Shown one piece after another: positions 50,730 through 61,814 of a stretch of 64,000 bases of DNA (position 1 is the stretch's first letter; every line of letters starts with the position of its first letter). The notes beneath the pieces are model-generated. The model searched no databases. It had not been told where the DNA came from and saw only the letters and a list, made by a program, of their open reading frames with translations. The position numbers and the translations under genes are program-made. The stretch comes from an uncultured Thermotogaceae bacterium (GTDB taxonomy: Bacteria > Thermotogota > Thermotogae > MWEM01). The stretch spans positions 3,887 to 67,886 of the forward strand of contig CAZMHO010000001.1 in NCBI GenBank assembly GCA_964566085.1. The letters are read 5' to 3'.

Positions 50730-51617
50730 TTATGATTCTTGTGTGGACATCGCTTTTTGGACGATCTTTTGATATTCCGAGATATAGCCCGGTTTCTTTT
50801 GGTTGATGAACTCTCCGATGATGATCCGTCCCGGATTATTGCGTTGGGCTTCCTGTAACCGGACGATCGGGTCATTGAGGATGTTCTCTTCTTCGTTTTT
50901 TCCATTTTCGGAAACTTTCGGTTTCGGCAGATTGAAAGCCTTCTCTTTAAAGTATAGCATCATTTGAGGAGCGGTCCCGATACCGGCGTAACGGCCAAGA
51001 TAAGTCGGACACTGGGTTACCACTTCGATGAAAGAAAACCCCTCGTTTTCCAGGCCGTGTTTGATATAGGTTTGGGTCGGTAAAAAATGATAGGCTGTCG
51101 AGCGCGCGACATAAGAGGCGCCTGCGGCGATCGCCAGACGGGAAAGATCGAAAGAGTTTTCCATATTGCCGTAGGGTGAGGTCGTCGCATAGGATTGCTG
51201 GGGAGTGGTGGGCGAATATTGCCCCCCCGTCATCCCGTAGATGTTGTTATTGAAGCAAACCACTGTCAGATCAATATTCCGACGGGCCGCGTGAATGAAA
51301 TGATTGCCCCCGATAGCGGCAAGATCGCCATCTCCGGTGATGACGATCACTTTGATCTCCGGACGGGCCAGCTTAACACCCGATGCGAAAGCGACCGCTC
51401 TTCCGTGGAGCGTATGCAACGTGTTGAAGTTTAAATACCCTGTCGCTCGCGAAGAACAACCTATTCCGGATACCACGGCTACTTTATTCGGATCCAATTG
51501 AAGCTCGTCAATTGCGCCCACAATCGCTTTTAAAGCGATGCCGTTCCCACAACCGGGGCACCAAACATGAGGCAAGCGATCCGTACGCAAGTACTTGAGG
51601 TATTTTTCTAAGGACAT
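50730..51617 (-). CDS. 2-oxoacid:ferredoxin oxidoreductase beta subunit (TPP-binding)
   Basis: WCPGCGNG (Cys cluster) and GDGD…IGGNH (TPP-Mg motif); RBS GGAGGAAAAAT. Confidence 0.85.
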   Translation of the reverse strand: MSLEKYLKYLRTDRLPHVWCPGCGNGIALKAIVGAIDELQLDPNKVAVVSGIGCSSRATGYLNFNTLHTLHGRAVAFASGVKLARPEIKVIVITGDGDLAAIGGNHFIHAARRNIDLTVVCFNNNIYGMTGGQYSPTTPQQSYATTSPYGNMENSFDLSRLAIAAGASYVARSTAYHFLPTQTYIKHGLENEGFSFIEVVTQCPTYLGRYAGIGTAPQMMLYFKEKAFNLPKPKVSENGKNEEENILNDPIVRLQEAQRNNPGRIIIGEFINQKKPGYISEYQKIVQKAMSTQES

Positions 51618-51755
51618 ATTTTTCCTCCGGCTACTTTGATATTTATTAAAAAATTATACCACGAACGATGAAGAAAACAATCAATCACAATTTCGCGTTT
51701 TTTATGATATTATAGCCTGGGCGCTTGATTATACGTAAAATGGGGGAGTACGCGA

Positions 51756-53147
51756 ATGACATACGATCTAATCGTAATCGGTTCGGGACCGGCAGGGTAT
51801 GTGGGGGCGATTCGCGCCAAACAGCTGGGTCTGCAAACCGCTATCGTTGAAATGGATAAGCCGGGCGGCGTCTGCCTTAACGTCGGGTGCATTCCGACGA
51901 AAGCCCTTATTCATAAAGCCAAAGAGTTCCGGGCGGTCGAAAGCCTAAAAAAGCTTGGGATCCAGGTGGATATGGCTCAATTCGATTTTTCGGGAGTAAC
52001 CCAGTACGCGAAAACGGTATCGTCCAAACTTTCCAAAAGCGTCGGGTTCTTATTGAAAAAGGCCGGCGTGGACGTGATCTTGGGGACTGCCAAATTCTTG
52101 TCCCCGACAACCCTTGAAGTGGTCAGCGGGGAGGAAAAAGAAATCCTCGCGGGCAAGCATTTCCTTATCGCGACGGGTTCGAGGCCAAAAAACCTTCCCG
52201 ATCTTTCGATCGATGAAGAGAGTATTCTCTCTTCAACCGGCGCCTTATTTTTGAAGCGTCTACCGAAGGCGATCGCCATCATCGGAGCCGGCGCGATCGG
52301 GGTGGAGTTTGCCTATATCTACCGTTCCTTCGGTTCCGAGGTCTATGTGATCGAAGTGATGCCAAGAATCCTGCCTCTGGAAGACAGCGAAGCGGTTGAA
52401 ATCCTCACGAAACAGTATATTAAACAGGGCATTCGGGTGCTCACCTCGACGAAAGTTTTGTCGGCGGAGAAGGGGGCCGAAGGTGTCCGACTTCGTATCC
52501 AGAAATCGGATGGCGATCCAGAATCACTGATGGTCGACAAAGTCTTGTTGTCTGTCGGAAGAACGATCAATACGGACCATCTGGGTTTGGAGTCCATCCC
52601 GTTAACAACCGAGAGAGGCTTTCTGAGCGTCAACGCGCGCTATCAAACCGCCATGCCGCACATTTATGCGGCGGGAGACGTCATCCCGACGCCTTTGTTG
52701 GCACACGTCGCCTCAGAAGAGGCGATAATAGCCGTCGAGTCGATTGCGAACCCCCTGAAGGAACCGGAAGACTTCTCCGGTCTCATACCCTCTTGTATCT
52801 ATTCGGAACCGGAATTGGCGAGCTTCGGAGAGCAGGAAGCGCATTTGGTGAACACGAACCGGCTATTCAAAAAATCGGTCTTTCCTTACCGCGGGATCGG
52901 AAAATCAGTCGCGACAGACCAACCGGAAGGTTTCATCAAGTTGCTGAGCGATCCGGAAACCGAACGGGTTTTAGGCGTTACCATTGTTGGCGCGCAAGCT
53001 ACCGAACTGATCCACGAATGCATGTTGCTAAAAAAAACGGGGCAATCGATTCGGACGCTCGCGCACATGATTCACGCCCACCCCACGTTTTCCGAAGGGT
53101 TGATGGAGGTGGCAAAATTAGCGCTTGGAGAGTCGATCAATCTATAG
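51756..53147 (+). CDS. lpdA: Dihydrolipoyl dehydrogenase
   Basis: GSGPAGY…GGVCLNVGCIPTK (redox-active disulfide) and the C-terminal HAHPTFSE dimer-interface His. Confidence 0.9.
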   Translation: MTYDLIVIGSGPAGYVGAIRAKQLGLQTAIVEMDKPGGVCLNVGCIPTKALIHKAKEFRAVESLKKLGIQVDMAQFDFSGVTQYAKTVSSKLSKSVGFLLKKAGVDVILGTAKFLSPTTLEVVSGEEKEILAGKHFLIATGSRPKNLPDLSIDEESILSSTGALFLKRLPKAIAIIGAGAIGVEFAYIYRSFGSEVYVIEVMPRILPLEDSEAVEILTKQYIKQGIRVLTSTKVLSAEKGAEGVRLRIQKSDGDPESLMVDKVLLSVGRTINTDHLGLESIPLTTERGFLSVNARYQTAMPHIYAAGDVIPTPLLAHVASEEAIIAVESIANPLKEPEDFSGLIPSCIYSEPELASFGEQEAHLVNTNRLFKKSVFPYRGIGKSVATDQPEGFIKLLSDPETERVLGVTIVGAQATELIHECMLLKKTGQSIRTLAHMIHAHPTFSEGLMEVAKLALGESINL

Positions 53148-53164
53148 CGGTGCGGAAATGCCGG

Positions 53165-53548
53165 ATGCGTTTCTGGAGCCTTTTGCTTGTATTCTTTCTC
53201 TTGGCCGTTTTTGCCGGGGCATGGACAACGGACCTTAAAGAGATAAAAACGCGATACACTCAAGAACAGATTGTCGAGTCGTTTGAAAAGGCCCGGCGGC
53301 ACGAATGGCTTGAAGAGTATCAGGAGAAAGACAACGCAATCTACCTTCTTACGAGCAAATTCAAGTACCGGACCCGGCTTCTTGACGACCAAACCCTTGT
53401 CTTCGACCAAGTTCAAAGCCGTTACGACTATGATATGCAATTCCCTTTTTGGACGATCATACTCTTGTTCATCATATCGGGGGCGGTTTTGATACTCATT
53501 TTCTTCCTGCCTTCTGATTTCAAGTTTAGAAAGAGAAAATCGCGATGA
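53165..53548 (+). CDS. Small bitopic membrane protein (127 aa)
   Basis: An N-terminal signal/anchor (MRFWSLLLVFFLLAVFAGA), a C-terminal TM, and a basic tail (FRKRKSR). Lies directly upstream of the export-protein gene. Confidence 0.35.
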   Translation: MRFWSLLLVFFLLAVFAGAWTTDLKEIKTRYTQEQIVESFEKARRHEWLEEYQEKDNAIYLLTSKFKYRTRLLDDQTLVFDQVQSRYDYDMQFPFWTIILLFIISGAVLILIFFLPSDFKFRKRKSR

Positions 53549-53606
53549 ATCAGCAGTAAAACCGTAAGACAATCGAAAGCGATTCGTGATAAAAGAGGAG
53601 AACCTT

Positions 53607-56429
53607 ATGAATAAGAGGCTTTTGGTTAGCATGTGTTTCTTCGCCATCTTTCTTTCGATTTCTGTAGGTCAGTATGCGCTCAAGCCTGGAGACCAGATCG
53701 AGGTGTACAATTATACCTACCCGGAACTCAATCAACCGGCTTTGGTGGGAAAGGATGGCTTTATCCAGCTAAAGCTGATCGGCTCTGTGAAAGCGGAGGG
53801 TATGAGCTTGGAAGAGCTGGCTGCGTTCACGAAGAGCAAACTGACGCCGTTCGCGCCGGAATCCCGGGTGACGATCCTATTGACGCAAATCTACCCGGTC
53901 AAGGCCTATATTATCGGCGAAGTGAACCAAGCGACGATTATCGATTTGACATATGAAGAGAACCCGACCCTTCTGCAGGCATTGAGTTTTTGCGGCGGAG
54001 TGAAGACGTCGGCCGATTTGAAAAATATCCTCCTTCGGCACGAGGATGGCTCCTTCGATACCGTCGATATTTCCGGAACGCTCGAATTCGGTCTTTGCGA
54101 GGACATAATCGCGATTCGCCCCGGGGATGTCATCGTGGTTCCCAGAAAATACGAACGTCGGGTTTATGTGTTCGGAAGTCTGGAGCAATCGGGAGTCATC
54201 TATTTTGAAGAAAAGGAACCGATGGTTTTGGAGGTTCTGTTATCCAAGGTTAAGTACGATCTGCGCACTTCGGAACCCACGATCTCTTTGATTCGCGACG
54301 GATACGAAACGCCCTTAACGCTTGAGGGTACCCGTTCCGTCGTAAAAAAAACCGAACTCCGAAGCAACGATATTTTGCTGATCCGTAAACTGCAGCCGAA
54401 GTATTTGTACGTGACCGGTCTATCGACCGCGAGCCGTATTGATTTCGAAAGAGAGGAAGAGATGACGCTGCAAACGTTGTTCGGAAAATTGGGGTTTGCG
54501 CCGCTCTCCGCTCTGGAGATTCGCATCACTCCGGCAAATGGGCAAGCAAGGACGTTATCTATCAACCGTTCGATACCGGTTTATCGATTCGGATCGGGAG
54601 ATATCGTCGAGTTTCCCCCTCAGAACTACGTTTACGTGAGTGGAAACGTAAGCAAAACAGGAAAGATAGATTTCTCCTACTCAGAACCGTTTACCTTGGA
54701 AACGCTTCTGGCTCTAGTGGGAGTGGGCGAAGAAGAAAGCGTCCAACTGACGGTGATCAATCCTGACGGCCGTCGTTTTCTATACCAATATCCCGAACGG
54801 AGAGAGACGCTCACACCCCTCGAACGAGGCGCTTTCGTTCAGTTCCCGTACAAACGGTACGTCTTTCTGGCCGGTTCGATTTCCGAAGGCAACGAGCGGC
54901 AACTGTATTTTCCGAACGAAGAAGAGATGACATTAAAACGCGCCTTAGCCAAAGCAAGCATCGATCTGTCCCAAAACAACTACGGCGTCACGGTGATCCG
55001 CAGTCAGGACCAATACCCGTTCGATCTGAAAAGCGCCCTTCTCTCCGAGGGGAATTTTTTGTTGGAAACGGGCGATATCCTGTTTTTTGAGAAAGAGACC
55101 GATCGGTACGTTCATCTCGTCGTTTCCGAAGGCGATAGCCGAAAGTTGCATTTCGCGCCCGAAGACCCTTTAGACCTATTCACCGTTCTCGTCAAATATG
55201 AGAAAACGGGGGAACTGACCGGTGATCAGATCAAGATCATCGATCCGTCTGGCCGCATTTTTTTGAGTTCGGTCAAAGCGGTTTTGAATCAGGAGGAAAA
55301 CTACTCCCTGTCTCCCAAAAGCCTTGTCGTAATCAACGCTAACGAACGGCGCGTTTTTGTCTTAGGAAACGTGGAGCATAGCGGAGAGATACTCTTCGGT
55401 CAAGACGAACCCTTTACCTTGACCACGCTCGTCGCCAAATGCAACCCCATCCTGAACGAAAAAACCGAGAACATCCTGGTTAAGCGTCGCGCCGGCGTAA
55501 CTGTTTTGGATCTTCAGGATGTCTTGGACGTTTCAACGGTATTCGCGTTGGAAAAAGACGCGGTCGTGTACTTTAAACCGTACGAACCAAAAGTCGTGAC
55601 GATCTTCGGACAGGTAAAAATCCCCGGACTTTTATCCTTCGGCAAACTTGAACCGCTGAATCTGATGACCGTTTTGTCTAAGGCCGGAGGGTTGCTTTCC
55701 GATGCCAGCCAACGCATCAAAGTGGTCGGGGCTGACGGCAAAAGCACTATCTATAACCTGATTTCTGAACCGAATCCGGAAAGGCTCTCGATCGCTCCCG
55801 GCAGTTATGTTGTGGTAGAGAACAATCAGGGGCAGTATATCGCCATTTTGGGAGACGTGAAGAACCCGGGGCTTCATTACCTAAAAAAAGACGAACTCTC
55901 GCTATTGGAATTGCTGAGCGCGCAAGGGGGGGTCAGCGATTGGACCCTAAACACGACATTGGAACTTACCCGCTCGTCGGGAGAGAAAGAGCTCATAAAT
56001 ATCGATCTGGACCCCTCGTCGCTAAACAAGACGAAGGTACGGCCGGGAGATACGGTTTTCGTATACCCGAGCAGCCGCTTGAAAGTCTACGTGTTCGGAG
56101 CCGTGGTGAATCCGGGCATCGTCCCCTATCGATCGAAGATGACGCTATTAGAGTCTTTGCTCTATTGTAGAGGGCCTTCTTCTTCCGCATACATGAAGAA
56201 AATTATGGTCTTCCCCGGGGGTGTCGACGCGAATCCGATCCTGTTGGACTATTCCGGATTCAGGAACGAGCGAGGCGTCGCAGACTACTTCCTGGAGCCG
56301 GGAGACGTCGTTTACGTGCCCCAAAACGCATTAGTGGAGATTAAAGATGTCGCCGGATTTCTGGGTACCATGCTGACGCTCGTGAATTCTGGGTTCACGT
56401 TAATGGATAAGCTGCAAAATTTACCGTAA
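53607..56429 (+). CDS. Wza/KpsD-like polysaccharide export protein with about 10 tandem SLBB (beta-grasp) repeats
   Basis: An N-terminal signal peptide plus a Poly_export (PES) motif LKPGDQIEV…DGFIQLKLIGSVKAEG. Repeated about 85-aa units of the form [RK]xYVxGxVxxxGxxxFxxxEPxTLxxLLxxxGG recur about 10 times. The ATG at 53607 has a strong RBS AGAGGAG; the track ORF begins at a GTG inside that RBS. Confidence 0.7.
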   Translation: MNKRLLVSMCFFAIFLSISVGQYALKPGDQIEVYNYTYPELNQPALVGKDGFIQLKLIGSVKAEGMSLEELAAFTKSKLTPFAPESRVTILLTQIYPVKAYIIGEVNQATIIDLTYEENPTLLQALSFCGGVKTSADLKNILLRHEDGSFDTVDISGTLEFGLCEDIIAIRPGDVIVVPRKYERRVYVFGSLEQSGVIYFEEKEPMVLEVLLSKVKYDLRTSEPTISLIRDGYETPLTLEGTRSVVKKTELRSNDILLIRKLQPKYLYVTGLSTASRIDFEREEEMTLQTLFGKLGFAPLSALEIRITPANGQARTLSINRSIPVYRFGSGDIVEFPPQNYVYVSGNVSKTGKIDFSYSEPFTLETLLALVGVGEEESVQLTVINPDGRRFLYQYPERRETLTPLERGAFVQFPYKRYVFLAGSISEGNERQLYFPNEEEMTLKRALAKASIDLSQNNYGVTVIRSQDQYPFDLKSALLSEGNFLLETGDILFFEKETDRYVHLVVSEGDSRKLHFAPEDPLDLFTVLVKYEKTGELTGDQIKIIDPSGRIFLSSVKAVLNQEENYSLSPKSLVVINANERRVFVLGNVEHSGEILFGQDEPFTLTTLVAKCNPILNEKTENILVKRRAGVTVLDLQDVLDVSTVFALEKDAVVYFKPYEPKVVTIFGQVKIPGLLSFGKLEPLNLMTVLSKAGGLLSDASQRIKVVGADGKSTIYNLISEPNPERLSIAPGSYVVVENNQGQYIAILGDVKNPGLHYLKKDELSLLELLSAQGGVSDWTLNTTLELTRSSGEKELINIDLDPSSLNKTKVRPGDTVFVYPSSRLKVYVFGAVVNPGIVPYRSKMTLLESLLYCRGPSSSAYMKKIMVFPGGVDANPILLDYSGFRNERGVADYFLEPGDVVYVPQNALVEIKDVAGFLGTMLTLVNSGFTLMDKLQNLP

Positions 56430-56453
56430 AAGCCGAAAAAATGGGGGGATTTC

Positions 56454-58622
56454 GTGCCTTCGTCCGAGCGCGATGAGATCTACGAAAAAGAACCGAACGA
56501 GTTAACGATAAACGATCTGTTCCGCATGTTCAAAAGGCGGATTGTGTGGTTTTTACTCGTCGTGGTCCTTACCGTTATCGCCACGATCCTCTATGCCTTC
56601 ATCTCTCCGCGGGTCTACGAGTCGAGCGTGACGATAAAACTGTCGGCCGCCTCTTCTTCCGGCATCTCTGGTTTCTTGCAGGATCTTCCTTTTGGAATCG
56701 GCGGATCTTCGAGCGGTGGCAGCATTTTAACGGAGATAGAGATGATCACGAGCAAAGGCAACATCGAAAAGGTGATCCGAAATATCGGTTTGTTGGATAT
56801 TCTGATACCGGCGGAGAAAAGAAAACCTGGAGAAGCGGAGCAGGCAATGTTCTCGCGCGCCGTAAGCGCCTTGGCGGAACAGATCAGCGTGAACCCGGTT
56901 AAGAACACCAATATCGTCAAGATTACCGTTGCCTTATCAGAAGGGGATCTCGCAGCGCGTATCGCCAATGAGTTGGCTTCGGTATACAACGAAAGTTTGT
57001 ACGATATCAACAAAACGCAAGCGAATGAAAAGCTGTCGTTCATTGAGAAGCAGCTGCCTGTGAGTAAAGCCGCTCTTGACTTCTCTATACGGAAGGTGAG
57101 AGAGTATAAGGAAGCGAAACAGATCTTTCTGATATCCGAAGAAGCGAAGGCTTTGTTAGAGGTAATCGCGGACTTCGACAAGCAGTTGAATGCAAAAAAA
57201 ATGGAATTGCGAACGACTCAGGCAGGGATTGCGGCGATCCGGGAAAAACTCTCCGCAACAAACGAAAAATTGATCTCCTCGGAAACGATCACGATCAATC
57301 CGCTTGTCAGCGAATTGCGGAGCAAGTTAACGAATCTGAATATCGAATTGGCCGCTTTGGAGAAACTCTATCCGGCCACCGATCCTCGAGTTCTACAAAA
57401 AAGGAAGTCGATCGAAGAGACTCAGAAAGAGCTATCGAAACAAGTCGTCAATATTGTCACGTCTCAGCAAAAAACAGACAACCCGATTTACGCGACGCTT
57501 ATGGGAGAGTTGGTCATGAAAGAGATCGACTATCAACTCTACGCCGCGACGATTGAAGCTATTGAAAATACCCGCAAGGAATACGACCAAAAAATGAGAC
57601 AGCTCCCCGCTCTCGAGCAGGAACTCACCGAGCTGCTCCGAGAGGAGAGCATCAACGAGCAGGTCTATGTCGCCCTCTACAAGAGTTATATCGACGCCCA
57701 GATTTCCGAAGCCGGGATCGTCAACCAAACCTATATCGTGGACGCAGCGGAACCCCCTTTGAATGCCGCGAAACCTCAAAAAAAACTCATCGTGGCGATA
57801 GGCGGGGTTTTGGGAGTATTCCTGGGCATCCTGTTCGTATTCGTTCTCGAATACCTTGAAAAACGGATTATGGATACCGAGGAGCTCGCGAAGATGACGG
57901 GGGACGCGGTCCCGATCTTCGGCTTTTTCCCGAAAACCAAAACCGGCCTTCTTCCGATTAATCCCCAGAATCCCGATCGCCTCCTCTCCGAAGCGGCTGA
58001 GACAGCCTATACGCGATTCCATTTAAGAAAACATGAACGCCCTTCGAAAGTTATCGCGATTACGAGTTCCGAGAGCAACACCGGGAGTTCTACACTTGCC
58101 TTCTACCTTGCGCAAACAATTGCTCGAAGCAGGGAACGCGTTCTCCTGATCGACGGGGCGCTACGATATACCAACCTCACGAAACGCATCGGATTGCCGA
58201 ATCACCAGACCGGCTTTTCTCAAGCCATTTCGGAGGGCTTCTCCGAACGGGTTCCTGTGGTTTCGCTACAACCTTATCTGGACTTTCTGCCGGCCGGAAA
58301 GCACGACGCGCATCCGTTGGCCCTGTTCCGAGGAAAACGGTTTGAAGAGTGGATAACCGCCATGGCGAAAGAATACGATCGAATTCTCATCGATACGCCG
58401 GCGATGAACCGGGATGTGGATACGTCCATGCTTATCGCGAGAACGGAAGGCGTTTTTTTGGTGGTCACGATTGGAAAAACCGGGAAACGCGCTTTTAGAA
58501 AGGCGCTGAACGATATTGGTTACGCGCAAATCCCTTTGTTGGGCCTTTTGGTCAATAAATGCCAAATCGGTAAAGATTTCTCCCTTCGAAAAAATGAAAA
58601 TCGATCCGAGATTCAAGCCTAA
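56454..58622 (+). CDS. Wzc/GumC-like polysaccharide co-polymerase with a degenerate BY-kinase-like ATPase domain
   Basis: A Wzz N-terminal TM, a long coiled-coil periplasmic region, a second TM (LIVAIGGVLGVFLGILFVFVL), then a CapB-like domain. The Walker A position reads ITSSESNTGSST (no Lys) and there is no C-terminal Tyr cluster. Confidence 0.65.
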   Translation: MPSSERDEIYEKEPNELTINDLFRMFKRRIVWFLLVVVLTVIATILYAFISPRVYESSVTIKLSAASSSGISGFLQDLPFGIGGSSSGGSILTEIEMITSKGNIEKVIRNIGLLDILIPAEKRKPGEAEQAMFSRAVSALAEQISVNPVKNTNIVKITVALSEGDLAARIANELASVYNESLYDINKTQANEKLSFIEKQLPVSKAALDFSIRKVREYKEAKQIFLISEEAKALLEVIADFDKQLNAKKMELRTTQAGIAAIREKLSATNEKLISSETITINPLVSELRSKLTNLNIELAALEKLYPATDPRVLQKRKSIEETQKELSKQVVNIVTSQQKTDNPIYATLMGELVMKEIDYQLYAATIEAIENTRKEYDQKMRQLPALEQELTELLREESINEQVYVALYKSYIDAQISEAGIVNQTYIVDAAEPPLNAAKPQKKLIVAIGGVLGVFLGILFVFVLEYLEKRIMDTEELAKMTGDAVPIFGFFPKTKTGLLPINPQNPDRLLSEAAETAYTRFHLRKHERPSKVIAITSSESNTGSSTLAFYLAQTIARSRERVLLIDGALRYTNLTKRIGLPNHQTGFSQAISEGFSERVPVVSLQPYLDFLPAGKHDAHPLALFRGKRFEEWITAMAKEYDRILIDTPAMNRDVDTSMLIARTEGVFLVVTIGKTGKRAFRKALNDIGYAQIPLLGLLVNKCQIGKDFSLRKNENRSEIQA

Positions 58623-58631
58623 AGGTTTCCG

Positions 58632-60146
58632 ATGAAAGCGATCATCCTTGACGGTTATGTGGACGAACCGGCGCTGTTTGGAGTCCCTCCGTTCGTTTCC
58701 ACGTACGTTCGATACGCCTGGGGCGCGTATCGTCATTTCGGAGTAGATCCAGAGTATTGGACAATCGACCAGATCAGGAAAGAGAACTCATGGGACGACC
58801 TCAATCAGGCCGATCATTTGGTGATCATCGGAGGCGTCAGCGTTCCAGGGAAGTACGCGGGAGGCGCGCCGCTTTCTTTCAACGAGCTCTCTAAGATCGC
58901 CGAAGGCTGCCCCGCTCCGCTGAAGATTCTATTCGGTGCTTTCACCTACCGTACTGAATCCGAAAAACGCAAAAACGAAAGGAAATCCGGAAAGTCCCGG
59001 ACAACTCAGAATAACCCTCTGAGAGCTATCGAATGCATCGTATCAGGAAACCTCGAGACCTATCTGTACTATCTTCTATCGGGTAAGAACCCGCCCGAGG
59101 ATATCGGAAAAGAGACGGATAAAACCGAACTGTGCGCCTTGGCCGGCGCGGGGTTAGTCAACCGGCATCCGAACTATCCGAATCTCATCTGCGAGCTCGA
59201 AGTGTCTTCCGGTTGCGAACGACGGTCTCATTGCAGTTTTTGTAGCGAACCCCTCTTTCATAAGCGCTTCTCGTCGCGAGACCCGGAAGCGTTGTTATCG
59301 GAAGCGGCTGCTTTGGGAGAACATGGGGTGAAACACTTTCGTTTGGGTCGTACAGCCAATATAAGCGCCTATGGCGAACGCGGCGACGGTCCCGATCCCG
59401 TGGCCCTGCGCAGAGTTTATCAAGGGTTTCGAGAACGGGTGCCCGGTCTGCGCACCTTGCATACTGACAACGCCAATCCCCAATACATCGCCGAGCACCC
59501 GACCGAGTCCGCCAAGATCCTCGAGACGATTGCGGAGTATAACACGTCCGGCGACATCCTGTCTTTCGGTGTCGAGTCTTTCGACGAAACCGTCATCCGT
59601 TCCAATAACCTTGGTACGCGGGTGGAAACGATCTATCAAGCCATCAAATTGGTCAACGAGATCGGGGGGCTCCGAAAAGAAGGGGTTCCAGCGCTCCTTC
59701 CGGGAATTAACCTCATCGCCGGATTGATCGGCGAGACGAAAAGTACTTTTTCGAAGAACCTCGAAGCGTTGAAGACGATCGTGGGAAACGGATGGCTCTT
59801 ACGCCGCATCAACCTCCGGCAGGTGATGGTTTTTCCAGAGACCCCTTTATGGATTTACCGTCAGTCCCATTACCTCCCTTTTCATCACTTGGAGTTCCAG
59901 CATTTCAAAGAGAAGGTCCGGAAGGAAATCGACCGCCCGATGCTTCAACAGGTCTTCCCGGCCGGAACGGTCATTCGGGACGTCGTGATGGAGTACCACG
60001 AAGGCAATAACACTTTCGGAAGGCCCTTGTGGACCTACGGGATCTTGATCGGTATCCGGGAAAGGCTTCCTATCGGCGAAAAGGTATCCGTTATCGTTAC
60101 AGAACACGGCTATCGATCGCTCACAGGCCAAAAGATTCCCGCTTAA
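58632..60146 (+). CDS. Radical-SAM-like Fe-S enzyme with an N-terminal Rossmann/B12-binding-like domain and a non-canonical Cys motif
   Basis: SSGCERRSHCSFCSE (C-x5-C-x2-C, not CxxxCxxC), with a TIM-barrel-length body. The N-terminal ~110 aa (KAIILDGYVDEP…LVIIGGVS) resemble flavodoxin/B12-binding folds. Confidence 0.55.
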   Translation: MKAIILDGYVDEPALFGVPPFVSTYVRYAWGAYRHFGVDPEYWTIDQIRKENSWDDLNQADHLVIIGGVSVPGKYAGGAPLSFNELSKIAEGCPAPLKILFGAFTYRTESEKRKNERKSGKSRTTQNNPLRAIECIVSGNLETYLYYLLSGKNPPEDIGKETDKTELCALAGAGLVNRHPNYPNLICELEVSSGCERRSHCSFCSEPLFHKRFSSRDPEALLSEAAALGEHGVKHFRLGRTANISAYGERGDGPDPVALRRVYQGFRERVPGLRTLHTDNANPQYIAEHPTESAKILETIAEYNTSGDILSFGVESFDETVIRSNNLGTRVETIYQAIKLVNEIGGLRKEGVPALLPGINLIAGLIGETKSTFSKNLEALKTIVGNGWLLRRINLRQVMVFPETPLWIYRQSHYLPFHHLEFQHFKEKVRKEIDRPMLQQVFPAGTVIRDVVMEYHEGNNTFGRPLWTYGILIGIRERLPIGEKVSVIVTEHGYRSLTGQKIPA

Positions 60147-60178
60147 GGCGCTTAAGCGAAGACGCTGAGCATTTTTGC

Positions 60179-60982
60179 TTAAGCTTCATTGCCTTGAGCT
60201 CCATCATCCTTCGATTTGTAAGTTCCAACCCCGATATGCGCGGCATCTAAGGCTTCCCGCAACGCTTTTGCGAAGGCTCCTGCGCGGGGGGTGTCCGAGT
60301 GAAGGCATAAGGTGTCGCATTCGCAAGGGATTAGAATCCCTTCAGCGCTCACGACTTCGCGCTTCCGGATCATACGGATGGTGCGAGGAACGAGTTCCTT
60401 TTCGGGAACGAAAGCGCCGGGTTCTCTCCGGGAAACCAGACTGCCGTCGGTGTGGAGTTGGCGGTCGATGAAAGCTTCCCTGGCGAAACGAATGCCTTGT
60501 TCCTCCGCGACCCGATGGACCGCCGATCGAGCAAGACCGACGAGCACTAAAGAAGGGTCATAGGCTTTAACGGCTTCGACGAGCGGGATTGCGACGGCTT
60601 CATCACGCGCCGCAATCGTGTAAAGCGCCCCGTGGGGTTTCACGTGAGCTAAGTGAAGTCCTCGGACTCTTAGAAAGGCATCCAAGGCTCCCAGTTGGTA
60701 GAGGATATCGGTTCGAATTTCGTTCGCGGGAAGGTTCAACTCGCGCCGCCCGAAACCCCGAAGATCATAGAACCCTGGATGGGCGCCTATTTGCAGGCCG
60801 AGATTCGCTGCCATCCTTACGGTTTTCTCTATGGTAATTGGATCCCCTGCATGGAAACCGCACGCGATATTTACGGAGGACACATACCGAAAAATCCGTT
60901 CGTCGTCTCCCATCGGATAGACTCCGAAACTTTCGCCGGCATCGCAATTGATATCAATGGTATCGGCGGCATTTCGCCACAA
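60179..60982 (-). CDS. pxpA: 5-oxoprolinase subunit A (LamB/YcsF family)
   Basis: IDINCDAGESFG…NIACGFHAGDP are LamB/YcsF motifs. Confidence 0.8.
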   Translation of the reverse strand: MWRNAADTIDINCDAGESFGVYPMGDDERIFRYVSSVNIACGFHAGDPITIEKTVRMAANLGLQIGAHPGFYDLRGFGRRELNLPANEIRTDILYQLGALDAFLRVRGLHLAHVKPHGALYTIAARDEAVAIPLVEAVKAYDPSLVLVGLARSAVHRVAEEQGIRFAREAFIDRQLHTDGSLVSRREPGAFVPEKELVPRTIRMIRKREVVSAEGILIPCECDTLCLHSDTPRAGAFAKALREALDAAHIGVGTYKSKDDGAQGNEA

Positions 60983-61100
60983 AGTATCACCTCATTTTCG
61001 AAAAAATATCGTATAATCATATCATACGTTCAATTCTCTAGTTCGGTTAAGAAAACACATCATTGCAACCGCTGAAGACAGGCGTTAAGGAAGGTGCACT

Positions 61101-61814
61101 ATGGGAGAAGAGATTCTATTCTTCGAAATCGAGAGGAAATATCTGTTTTTGTCGCTGGATAAAGCGAAGCGGTTTATCAACGCACCGCGTTTCCGATGGC
61201 AAAAGATCGGTATCCTCCAATGGTATCTGGACGAGAAAGATGAACCGGGGGTATCGGTTCGTATACGATTGATGATAGAGGAGACGGCAGAAGGGTTTTC
61301 GGAACGATGGGTGATCGGAAGCAAAAAACCCGTTGATGGCAATCCCGAAAAAAGGGTGGAGGTGGAGACCCCCTTCTCGCCCGCGAGCGTGTGGCCCGAT
61401 CTACCTTACCTAACGGAGGCTTTTCGAAATCGAATCGCGTCGCGTAACTTCGATCGGTATCCCGTTGTTGCCAAGATACGGCACTTATTAGTCGATCCCG
61501 CGGACATTGCTCAAGAGGCAAATGTCGTCTTAGATTACTTTTTATACCCAAAGAAGAAGAAAGGGGAACGGGTTTACCTCGAGATCGAACTGAAAAACAG
61601 CGATTCGCCGTATCGCGATGAGGAGCGGTTCGAAAAGCTCTTTCAAAGTCTCGAACTATCTTCTTTCGTTCGCGATATCACCGACAAGAAGAATATGACG
61701 AACCGAAGTTTAGCCGAAAATGCTTTTAAGAAGACGGAAAAGAAGTACGGGATGGAAAAGGGAGTTTCGGAGATACGACACGCGCTCCCGCAATCGGAGT
61801 GCTTTAGCCATTGA
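61101..61814 (+). CDS. CYTH-domain protein (triphosphate tunnel metalloenzyme)
   Basis: The EIERKYL start motif and later ExE/K-rich beta-barrel segments (LEIELK). Precise substrate is unknown. Confidence 0.55.
   Translation: MGEEILFFEIERKYLFLSLDKAKRFINAPRFRWQKIGILQWYLDEKDEPGVSVRIRLMIEETAEGFSERWVIGSKKPVDGNPEKRVEVETPFSPASVWPDLPYLTEAFRNRIASRNFDRYPVVAKIRHLLVDPADIAQEANVVLDYFLYPKKKKGERVYLEIELKNSDSPYRDEERFEKLFQSLELSSFVRDITDKKNMTNRSLAENAFKKTEKKYGMEKGVSEIRHALPQSECFSH

Follow-up and report, generated by a model that had tools for sequence, protein, structure and literature searches.

The window analysed here is a 64,000-nucleotide (nt) stretch of DNA from an uncultured Thermotogaceae bacterium (GenBank assembly GCA_964566085.1, contig CAZMHO010000001.1, positions 3,887 to 67,886 of the forward strand), and we focus on one of its genes, 58632-60146, the last of a same-strand run with short gaps behind genes for Wza-like and Wzc-like proteins. 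A preliminary description, made from the letters of the sequence, had read its product as a radical S-adenosylmethionine (SAM) enzyme with a non-canonical cysteine motif and a B12/flavodoxin-type N-terminal domain, and had coupled it to polysaccharide export. We find that the gene almost certainly encodes a genuine radical SAM enzyme, and that this enzyme belongs to a family named by the Joint Genome Institute (JGI) for its C-terminal helix-hairpin-helix (HhH) motif, which we equate with COG1031. As judged by comparison with homologues and by a structural model, its members have the fold of the methylthiotransferases (MTTases), lack the cysteines that ligate the auxiliary iron-sulfur cluster of those enzymes, and differ from one another in the length of the SAM cluster loop.

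Radical SAM core and family membership

The Pfam domain Radical_SAM (PF04055) matches residues 190-373 of the translated protein at 44.1 bits (gathering score 29.5). Since the protein holds only seven cysteines (residues 93, 135, 168, 187, 195, 201 and 204), C195-x5-C201-x2-C204 in GCERRSHCSFC is its sole cluster-motif candidate, as had been described, and the translation confirms it; these three would be the ligands in the predicted [4Fe-4S]/SAM cluster loop, GCERRSHCSFCSEP. All three are invariant in the aligned homologues (98 of 98), and LGRxAN, HTDNANP, SFGVESFD, LLPGxN..GLxGE and RRxNxR are invariant or nearly so in the same 98-sequence alignment. In alignments to solved enzymes, the counterparts of the SAM motifs fall at the usual SAM-binding positions, with LGR-tAN of the window protein aligned to LGQ--NV of MiaB, GLIGET to GFPGET of RimO and SFGVESFD to YGIESGS of MgmA, and the model described below contains the partial TIM-barrel fold with the GGE position, the ribose motif and GxIxGxxE. 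Cysteines that are not conserved and SAM motifs that are missing had been named in the preliminary description as the findings that would count against its radical SAM call; neither was found, and with PF04055 above its cutoff the call stands. A further cysteine, Cys187 (59190-59192), lies in strand beta-1 (LICELEV), eight residues before the cluster loop; it is conserved in 78 of the 98 homologues, and in a mixed set of archaeal and Thermotogota sequences ~78% keep it.

A protein database homology search returned 2729 homologues of the window protein, the nearest of which are Thermotogota proteins that NCBI labels just 'radical SAM protein'. Several homologues carry the JGI name 'radical SAM superfamily enzyme with C-terminal helix-hairpin-helix motif', which we take to be COG1031, and match at E-values down to 1e-221 with 99-100% query coverage. 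This JGI-named family has in common with the window protein the motifs of the N-terminal domain, the context of the cluster loop (GC...CSFCxEP), the core motifs and the C-terminal barrel. Full-length identity to the window protein is 42-82% for Thermotogota members and ~40% for archaeal ones. A scan with one genome per species yields at least 539 genomic relatives, the best 80 of which come from Thermotogota, Halobacteria, Methanosarcinales and Methanomicrobiales and align over the full length at 39-47% identity; orthologues are found in Haloferax, Methanosarcina and Thermotoga genomes. The family is compact: of 1.8 billion clusters searched through their 50%-identity representatives, 154 match at E <= 1e-30, and the looser limit of E <= 1e-3 brings the number to 476. 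In a neighbour-joining tree the branching follows taxonomy, and the window protein falls within Thermotogota as part of a monophyletic clade, a placement that, on these sequences, fits an orthologue and not a recently acquired accessory gene.

COG1031 was listed in 2008 among signature genes of the Archaea that Thermotoga maritima has as well (PMC2464742). The searchable literature gives a single incidental mention of COG1031 and contains nothing that joins 'C-terminal helix-hairpin-helix motif' to 'radical SAM'; we find in searchable sources no specific function named for the family and no characterising paper. An NCBIfam scan of the window protein returns no model that reaches its cutoff: the top match, TIGR04013 (B12-binding/radical SAM), scores 44 bits against a cutoff of 251, TIGR00089 (the MiaB/RimO subfamily) 36.9 bits against 251, and the MiaB, RimO and MtaB equivalog models 19-29 bits against cutoffs of 315-606. 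The window protein is a new member of an old, catalogued and functionally unstudied family common to Archaea and Thermotogota.

Length variation in the cluster loop

The most telling result concerns the first cysteine-to-cysteine spacing, which takes values of 3 to 9 residues across the family; the CX2C part is constant. At genomic loci, all 46 Halobacteria orthologues have CX3CX2C (GC[AP]YRCSFC), the Methanosarcinales have CX5 (12 of 12), both Methanomicrobiales (2 of 2) have CX7 (GCSRAVxGGCSFC), and the Thermotogota have CX5 in 16 cases and CX6 in two. Among the 50%-identity cluster representatives with a loop, taken over all groups, CX5 (47) and CX7 (42) are followed by CX4 (9), CX6 (7), CX3 (2), CX8 (1) and CX9 (1). 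The window loop is two residues longer than the canonical CX3CX2C and than that of MiaB, MtaB and RimO, and a profile alignment to RimO places the difference as a two-residue insertion, GCErktfCsfC versus GCDRG--CTFC. OxsB, with CX4CX2C (PMC9204698), is a precedent for a longer loop in the same structural neighbourhood. As read from the aligned sequences, the CX5CX2C spacing of the window protein is real and conserved in its clade, but it is a loop-length variant inside one orthologous family.

HmdB is a published example of CX5CX2C (PMC9431491), and the preliminary description had drawn that parallel from the motif. The non-canonical spacing itself stands; the parallel does not. HmdB and HcgA share the spacing but belong to a different, BioB/HydE-like subgroup and resemble the window protein only in the generic radical SAM barrel, no HmdB- or BioB/HydE-type model is among the NCBIfam matches at E <= 1, and by fold the window protein lies close to RimO, MiaB and MgmA. 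Because orthologues of the window protein have CX3, CX4, CX6 and CX7 loops as well, the analogy is superficial. RadicalSAM.org places a CX5CX2C group in Megacluster-4, where the SFLD subgroup is biotin and thiazole synthase; we infer that this group is HmdB-like and not the COG1031-type family. No description of loop-length variation among orthologues was found in the searchable literature, and the COG1031-type family offers a natural series for how much slack the radical SAM cluster loop tolerates.

Domain architecture and structural relatives

An AlphaFold2 model, built with the 98-sequence alignment, has a mean predicted local distance difference test (pLDDT) score of 92.6 and a predicted template modelling (pTM) score of 0.91, with only residues 118-126 disordered. 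It has three parts: a Rossmann-like N-terminal domain (residues ~1-180), the radical SAM barrel, and a five-stranded C-terminal barrel (447-501). At the level of fold the model bears out the B12/flavodoxin-type Rossmann domain of the preliminary description. The Pfam B12-binding domain (PF02310) is detected neither in the full protein nor in the isolated N-domain at E <= 1-10, and Pfam searches with the isolated N- and C-terminal domains give no B12-binding, UPF0004 or TRAM match.

The closest structures in a Foldseek search of the PDB are MiaB, MtaB and RimO (E-values of ~1e-19 to 4e-17, TM scores of 0.62-0.74), followed by MgmA, TsrM, AprD4 and OxsB, with TokK and CysS also among the fold neighbours. 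The structural alignment covers 400 of the 421 residues of RimO and 404 of the 444 residues of MiaB. The window model has the same three-domain layout as MiaB, MtaB and RimO (TIGR00089; PDB 7mjv, 9a6d and 4jc0), by fold only. These enzymes have three conserved cysteines in their N-terminal UPF0004 domain for an auxiliary [4Fe-4S] cluster, whereas the family of the window protein has none: the homologue alignments contain no conserved cysteine column before residue 187, and Cys93, Cys135 and Cys168 of the N-domain are not conserved. An auxiliary cluster is therefore unlikely, and it could not be ligated as in the MTTases. The conserved residues of the N-domain are instead acidic, aromatic or Pro/Gly residues in loops after beta-strands (DGYVDEPAxxGVPP, RY and VPGKYxGGxP), and these loops probably occupy the site of the MTTase auxiliary cluster. 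We rejected the identity of a canonical archaeal MTTase, such as MJ0867 or MA1153, for the window protein, whose scores with the MtaB equivalog models fall far short of the cutoffs; MJ0867 and MA1153 are MtaB-family enzymes that make ms2t6A and ms2hn6A (PMC10702137).

The class B cobalamin radical SAM enzymes (MgmA/QCMT, PDB 9ccb, TsrM, TokK and OxsB) also resemble the window model by fold but have no counterpart for the C-terminal barrel or for the HhH tail of the COG1031-type family. A radical SAM protein with a C-terminal HhH described elsewhere (bioRxiv 10.64898/2026.08.19.745780) pairs core and HhH as most orthologues of the window protein do; unlike the window family, it has a Fer4_12-type core with the canonical CX3CX2C and no Rossmann N-domain, and no model for this protein type appears in the NCBIfam scan of the window protein.

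C-terminal tails and the window clade

In almost every orthologue from Thermotogota or Archaea the chain runs on for another 50-66 residues beyond the barrel, with the pattern 'P.PLD.N.A....L..IPGIG...A..I...RP', and these tails match the Pfam domains HHH_3, HHH or HHH_5. In the longest family members the HhH is the only extra Pfam domain, and no other fusion is seen that might hint at function. The window protein ends five residues past the barrel and lacks the HhH tail, of ~55-65 residues, after which the family is named; together with the proteins of loci L002-L004 and homologues P0002-P0022 (497-513 residues), it ends right after the barrel. The tree supports a secondary loss of the HhH in the window clade, within the family.

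A Lys/Arg-rich insertion, YRTESEKRKNERKSGKSRTTQNN, is found only in the window subclade (the window protein and P0002-P0004), where it stands in place of a loop, GYxxxGGxxA, that is otherwise conserved in the family. The insertion might make up for the missing HhH tail, or it might be a sign of functional drift. Natronorubrum bangense JCM 10635 carries two orthologues, one on the chromosome (NZ_CP031305.1, locus L048) and one on an 828-kb plasmid (NZ_CP031306.1, locus L049); their C-terminal tails are identical, and both have the same TRAM-domain neighbour.

Genomic neighbourhood

The features of the locus are collected in Table 1. The sequence, read directly, agrees with the placement of the start in the preliminary description, 9 nt after the stop of the Wzc-like open reading frame (ORF): the TAA lies at 58620-58622, the ATG follows on the same strand, and an AAGG that overlaps the stop is a possible, weak Shine-Dalgarno sequence for the radical SAM gene. 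The ORFs within the gene (59295-59639, minus strand; 59371-59727, plus strand; 59847-60131, minus strand) are antisense or out-of-frame shadows. The hairpin at the 3' end is terminator-like on the minus strand in a terminator scan and may serve as a bidirectional terminator, with the caveat that terminator-like sites in the region, like the matches of a promoter and terminator scan of 51000-61200 as a whole, are not above shuffle expectation.

Table 1. Coordinates of the radical SAM gene, its encoded domains and its neighbours in the window
Feature	Position	Strand	Remarks
Dihydrolipoyl-dehydrogenase (DLD)-like gene	51756-53147	+	
Small LapA-domain protein gene	53165-53548	+	
Wza-like protein gene	53586-56429	+	947 aa; Poly_export and several SLBB domains (Pfam)
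Wzc/PCP-like protein gene	56454-58622	+	722 aa; Wzz, GNVR and P-loop-like domains (Pfam); upstream neighbour in this lineage only
Spacer aggtttccg, Wzc-like stop to radical SAM start	58623-58631	+	9 nt
Radical SAM enzyme gene	58632-60146	+	ATG start, 504 aa, then stop (ORF list)
N-terminal Rossmann/flavodoxin-like domain, residues ~1-180	58632-59171	+	Motifs DGYVDEPAxxGVPP, RY and VPGKYxGGxP; no conserved Cys
Lys/Arg-rich low-confidence insertion, residues ~106-128	58947-59015	+	pLDDT <50 at residues 118-126; seen in alignment
Radical SAM partial (beta/alpha) barrel core, residues ~185-420	59184-59891	+	LGRxAN (GGE position), HTDNANP, SFGVESFD (ribose-motif position), GLIGET, RRINxR
[4Fe-4S]/SAM cluster loop (C195, C201, C204)	59211-59252	+	From translation; ligands predicted from alignment
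C-terminal five-stranded beta-barrel, residues ~445-502	59964-60137	+	In the place of the MTTase TRAM domain
Palindromic hairpin, 10 bp	60138-60160		Overlaps the radical SAM stop codon, between the convergent radical SAM and LamB/YcsF genes
LamB/YcsF gene	60179-60982		Convergent with the radical SAM gene

With short gaps and no terminator that stands out above chance, co-transcription of the radical SAM gene with the Wza-like and Wzc-like genes is plausible in this organism. The same gene order is found at L001 (JGI contig Ga0207193_1000274), which encodes a protein identical to the window protein (P0001), at L002 (77% identity) and at the P0004 loci (65% identity). Wza-like and Wzc-like neighbours occur only in relatives at 65-82% identity, and these share the whole gene order of ~17 kb, including POR, DLD, LamB/YcsF, CYTH-like, MobA-like, VIT-VWA, NosD-like, MscS and helicase genes; because unrelated genes are shared along with the pair, the adjacency reflects genome-wide synteny between related organisms and not selective retention of a gene pair.

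Outside these relatives the neighbours change. P0005 (55% identity) has a Glucosamine_iso gene upstream and CorA downstream, and P0022 (47% identity) a flavodoxin-like/flavin mononucleotide (FMN) reductase gene upstream and an FGE-sulfatase gene downstream; L003 and L004 have genes for an unknown protein and another radical SAM protein downstream. In Thermotogaceae and Fervidobacteriaceae, genes for an extracytoplasmic function (ECF) sigma factor, an anti-sigma factor and a 256-aa protein lie upstream; Mesoaciditogales have a ComM-like gene upstream and Dxr and RseP downstream; in Methanosarcinales the neighbours are IlvD, a membrane protein and a nucleotidyltransferase. De novo clustering of 559 neighbouring ORFs from 77 loci reveals no conserved operon partner, only lineage-specific neighbours, and the sole neighbour cluster that crosses domains consists of generic ABC ATPases. 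The co-expression part of the preliminary description thus remains plausible, while its functional coupling to polysaccharide export is not borne out: the gene follows the Wza-like and Wzc-like genes through a gene order particular to this lineage and not through a conserved functional coupling, and we hold it quite probable that the exporter link is not functional.

Several neighbourhoods have features of their own. The only archaeal neighbour that recurs is a gene for a small TRAM-domain protein (PF01938, 59.7 bits), which adjoins the orthologue in 24 haloarchaeal loci, 150-620 nt downstream (~2-2.5 kb in two loci), for example at 10134-10313 of L027 and 9765-9944 of L028. In the P0022 lineage the flavodoxin-like/FMN reductase gene lies 53 nt upstream on the same strand (L085, 7358-7948; L086, 3516-4106); its product could be the physiological reductant, and the arrangement is found only there. 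In L005-L013 (e.g., L005, 4831-6640) the orthologue directly follows the genes for the ECF-type sigma factor, the putative anti-sigma factor and a protein of 246-277 aa that matches no Pfam domain and has a hydrophobic N-terminal segment. The Wzc-like protein of the window (56454-58622), whose C-terminal domain is the P-loop-like one, has no canonical Walker A motif (GxxxxGK[ST]), the corresponding region reading AITSSESNTGSSTL, and no Tyr-rich C-terminal tail, and is probably not an active bacterial tyrosine kinase. The Wza-like gene is a single ORF of 947 aa in the window and two genes (630 and 287 aa) on L001 (4923-7779), where the tblastn match breaks in two at residue 621; the two sequences thus differ by a frameshift or indel.

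Proposed function and alternatives

With a probability of roughly 0.55, we read the window protein as the Thermotogota orthologue of an ancient radical SAM family of Archaea and Thermotogota that acts as a stand-alone, macromolecule-modifying enzyme. A stand-alone and probably housekeeping enzyme is suggested by a phylogeny that looks vertical, by the compactness of the family and its lack of a conserved operon partner, by the MTTase-like scaffold and by the HhH tail of most members. The single [4Fe-4S] cluster would bind SAM and cleave it reductively to a 5'-deoxyadenosyl radical, which would abstract a hydrogen from the substrate, a macromolecule that the C-terminal barrel and, in most orthologues, the HhH tail would hold. 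That substrate would most likely be RNA, DNA or a ribonucleoprotein (RNP), though we give a nucleic-acid or RNP substrate slightly less than even odds. The DGYVDEP, RY and VPGKY motifs of the N-domain probably replace the auxiliary-cluster site and would bind substrate or a second cofactor, possibly cobalamin. Sulfur insertion of the methylthiotransferase type is unlikely, as ligands for the auxiliary cluster are missing.

Several observations weigh against this reading. The substrate class is read from domain architecture alone, and the C-terminal barrel has no TRAM sequence similarity, with no Pfam match and an hhalign probability of 0.4% against the haloarchaeal TRAM proteins. Barrels of the TRAM type are able to bind protein too, RimO being an example. 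In haloarchaea the TRAM gene is on the same strand as the orthologue in 12 loci and on the opposite strand in 12, so that the adjacency has been kept despite inversion, yet it is only a weak hint of a nucleic-acid substrate. With the HhH tail lost and a basic insertion gained, the function of the window clade may have drifted from that of the rest of the family. Finally, the 9-nt spacing to the Wzc-like gene is kept down to 65% identity, and a local cell-envelope role of the radical SAM enzyme is conceivable.

A cobalamin-dependent, class B methyltransferase, in which the Rossmann-like N-domain binds cobalamin and an unactivated carbon of a protein, an RNA or a small molecule is C-methylated, would account for TsrM, TokK, CysS and OxsB among the fold neighbours, for TIGR04013 as the best NCBIfam match, and for the loop, given that OxsB brings a non-canonical spacing into that group. 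Corrinoid synthesis occurs in methanogens and haloarchaea, and some Thermotogota produce these cofactors themselves or obtain them by salvage. We nevertheless regard this as unlikely: the B12-binding domain goes undetected even on the isolated N-domain, TIGR04013 falls far short of its cutoff, and RimO and MiaB match equally well and also cover the C-terminal barrel. AprD4, with the same kind of N-domain, is reported not to use cobalamin, so the fold of this domain does not predict the cofactor. The likeness to RimO could instead point to a modifier of proteins whose C-terminal barrel docks a ribosomal or other protein and not nucleic acid, an idea that we consider improbable, since without auxiliary-cluster cysteines methylthiolation is unlikely and the HhH tails of most orthologues favour a nucleic-acid ligand.

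Equally improbable, in our estimate, is an enzyme that tailors polysaccharide, as a sugar C-methylase, epimerase or dehydratase whose expression and function would both be linked to the Wza-like and Wzc-like export genes. Such a role would fit the shared strand, the 9-nt gap with no convincing terminator in between, an arrangement kept in relatives at 82%, 77% and 65% identity, a clade without the HhH tail, and AprD4 as a sugar-modifying fold neighbour. These same relatives, however, share the entire ~17-kb order with its unrelated DLD, LamB/YcsF, VWA and helicase genes, and members at 47-55% identity that also lack the HhH have other neighbours (Glucosamine_iso/CorA, flavodoxin/FGE-sulfatase, an ABC ATPase, another radical SAM protein), as does the family again across Archaea; adjacent to the gene we see only the Wza-like and Wzc-like genes and no glycosyltransferase, Wzx or Wzy gene. 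Nothing points to sugar C-methylation or epimerisation as such, the chemistries first proposed, and the MTTase-like architecture and HhH tails point to a nucleic-acid or RNP substrate. For a cofactor maturase of the HmdB/HcgA type, which the common CX5CX2C had brought to mind, the spacing of the motif is the sole argument, and we give this idea practically no weight: it was rejected for want of a family-model match, for its different fold subgroup and for a spacing that varies among orthologues. The COG1031-type family occurs, moreover, in haloarchaea and Thermotogota, in which we know of no [Fe]-hydrogenase.

For this window the outcome is of little consequence, the gene being one more member of a family that is publicly labelled only 'radical SAM protein' and its suggested tie to polysaccharide export not being borne out. 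For the family we offer, tentatively and as something we would put at well under even odds, that it is an unrecognised class of nucleic-acid- or RNP-modifying radical SAM enzymes, widespread in Archaea and built on the MTTase scaffold, in which an acidic/aromatic site (DGYVDEP/RY/VPGKY) has replaced the auxiliary Fe-S site and the cluster loop spans 3-9 residues, with an ancient transfer to or from Thermotogota and the window clade, without its HhH tail, as a derived branch; such a class might be responsible for a modification to which no enzyme has yet been assigned. The cluster-less MTTase fold and the 3-9-residue loop are findings of moderate specialist interest, and the family, whose members in Thermotogota and in several archaeal orders are still ~40% identical and whose MTTase architecture comes without auxiliary-cluster ligands, is a worthwhile target.

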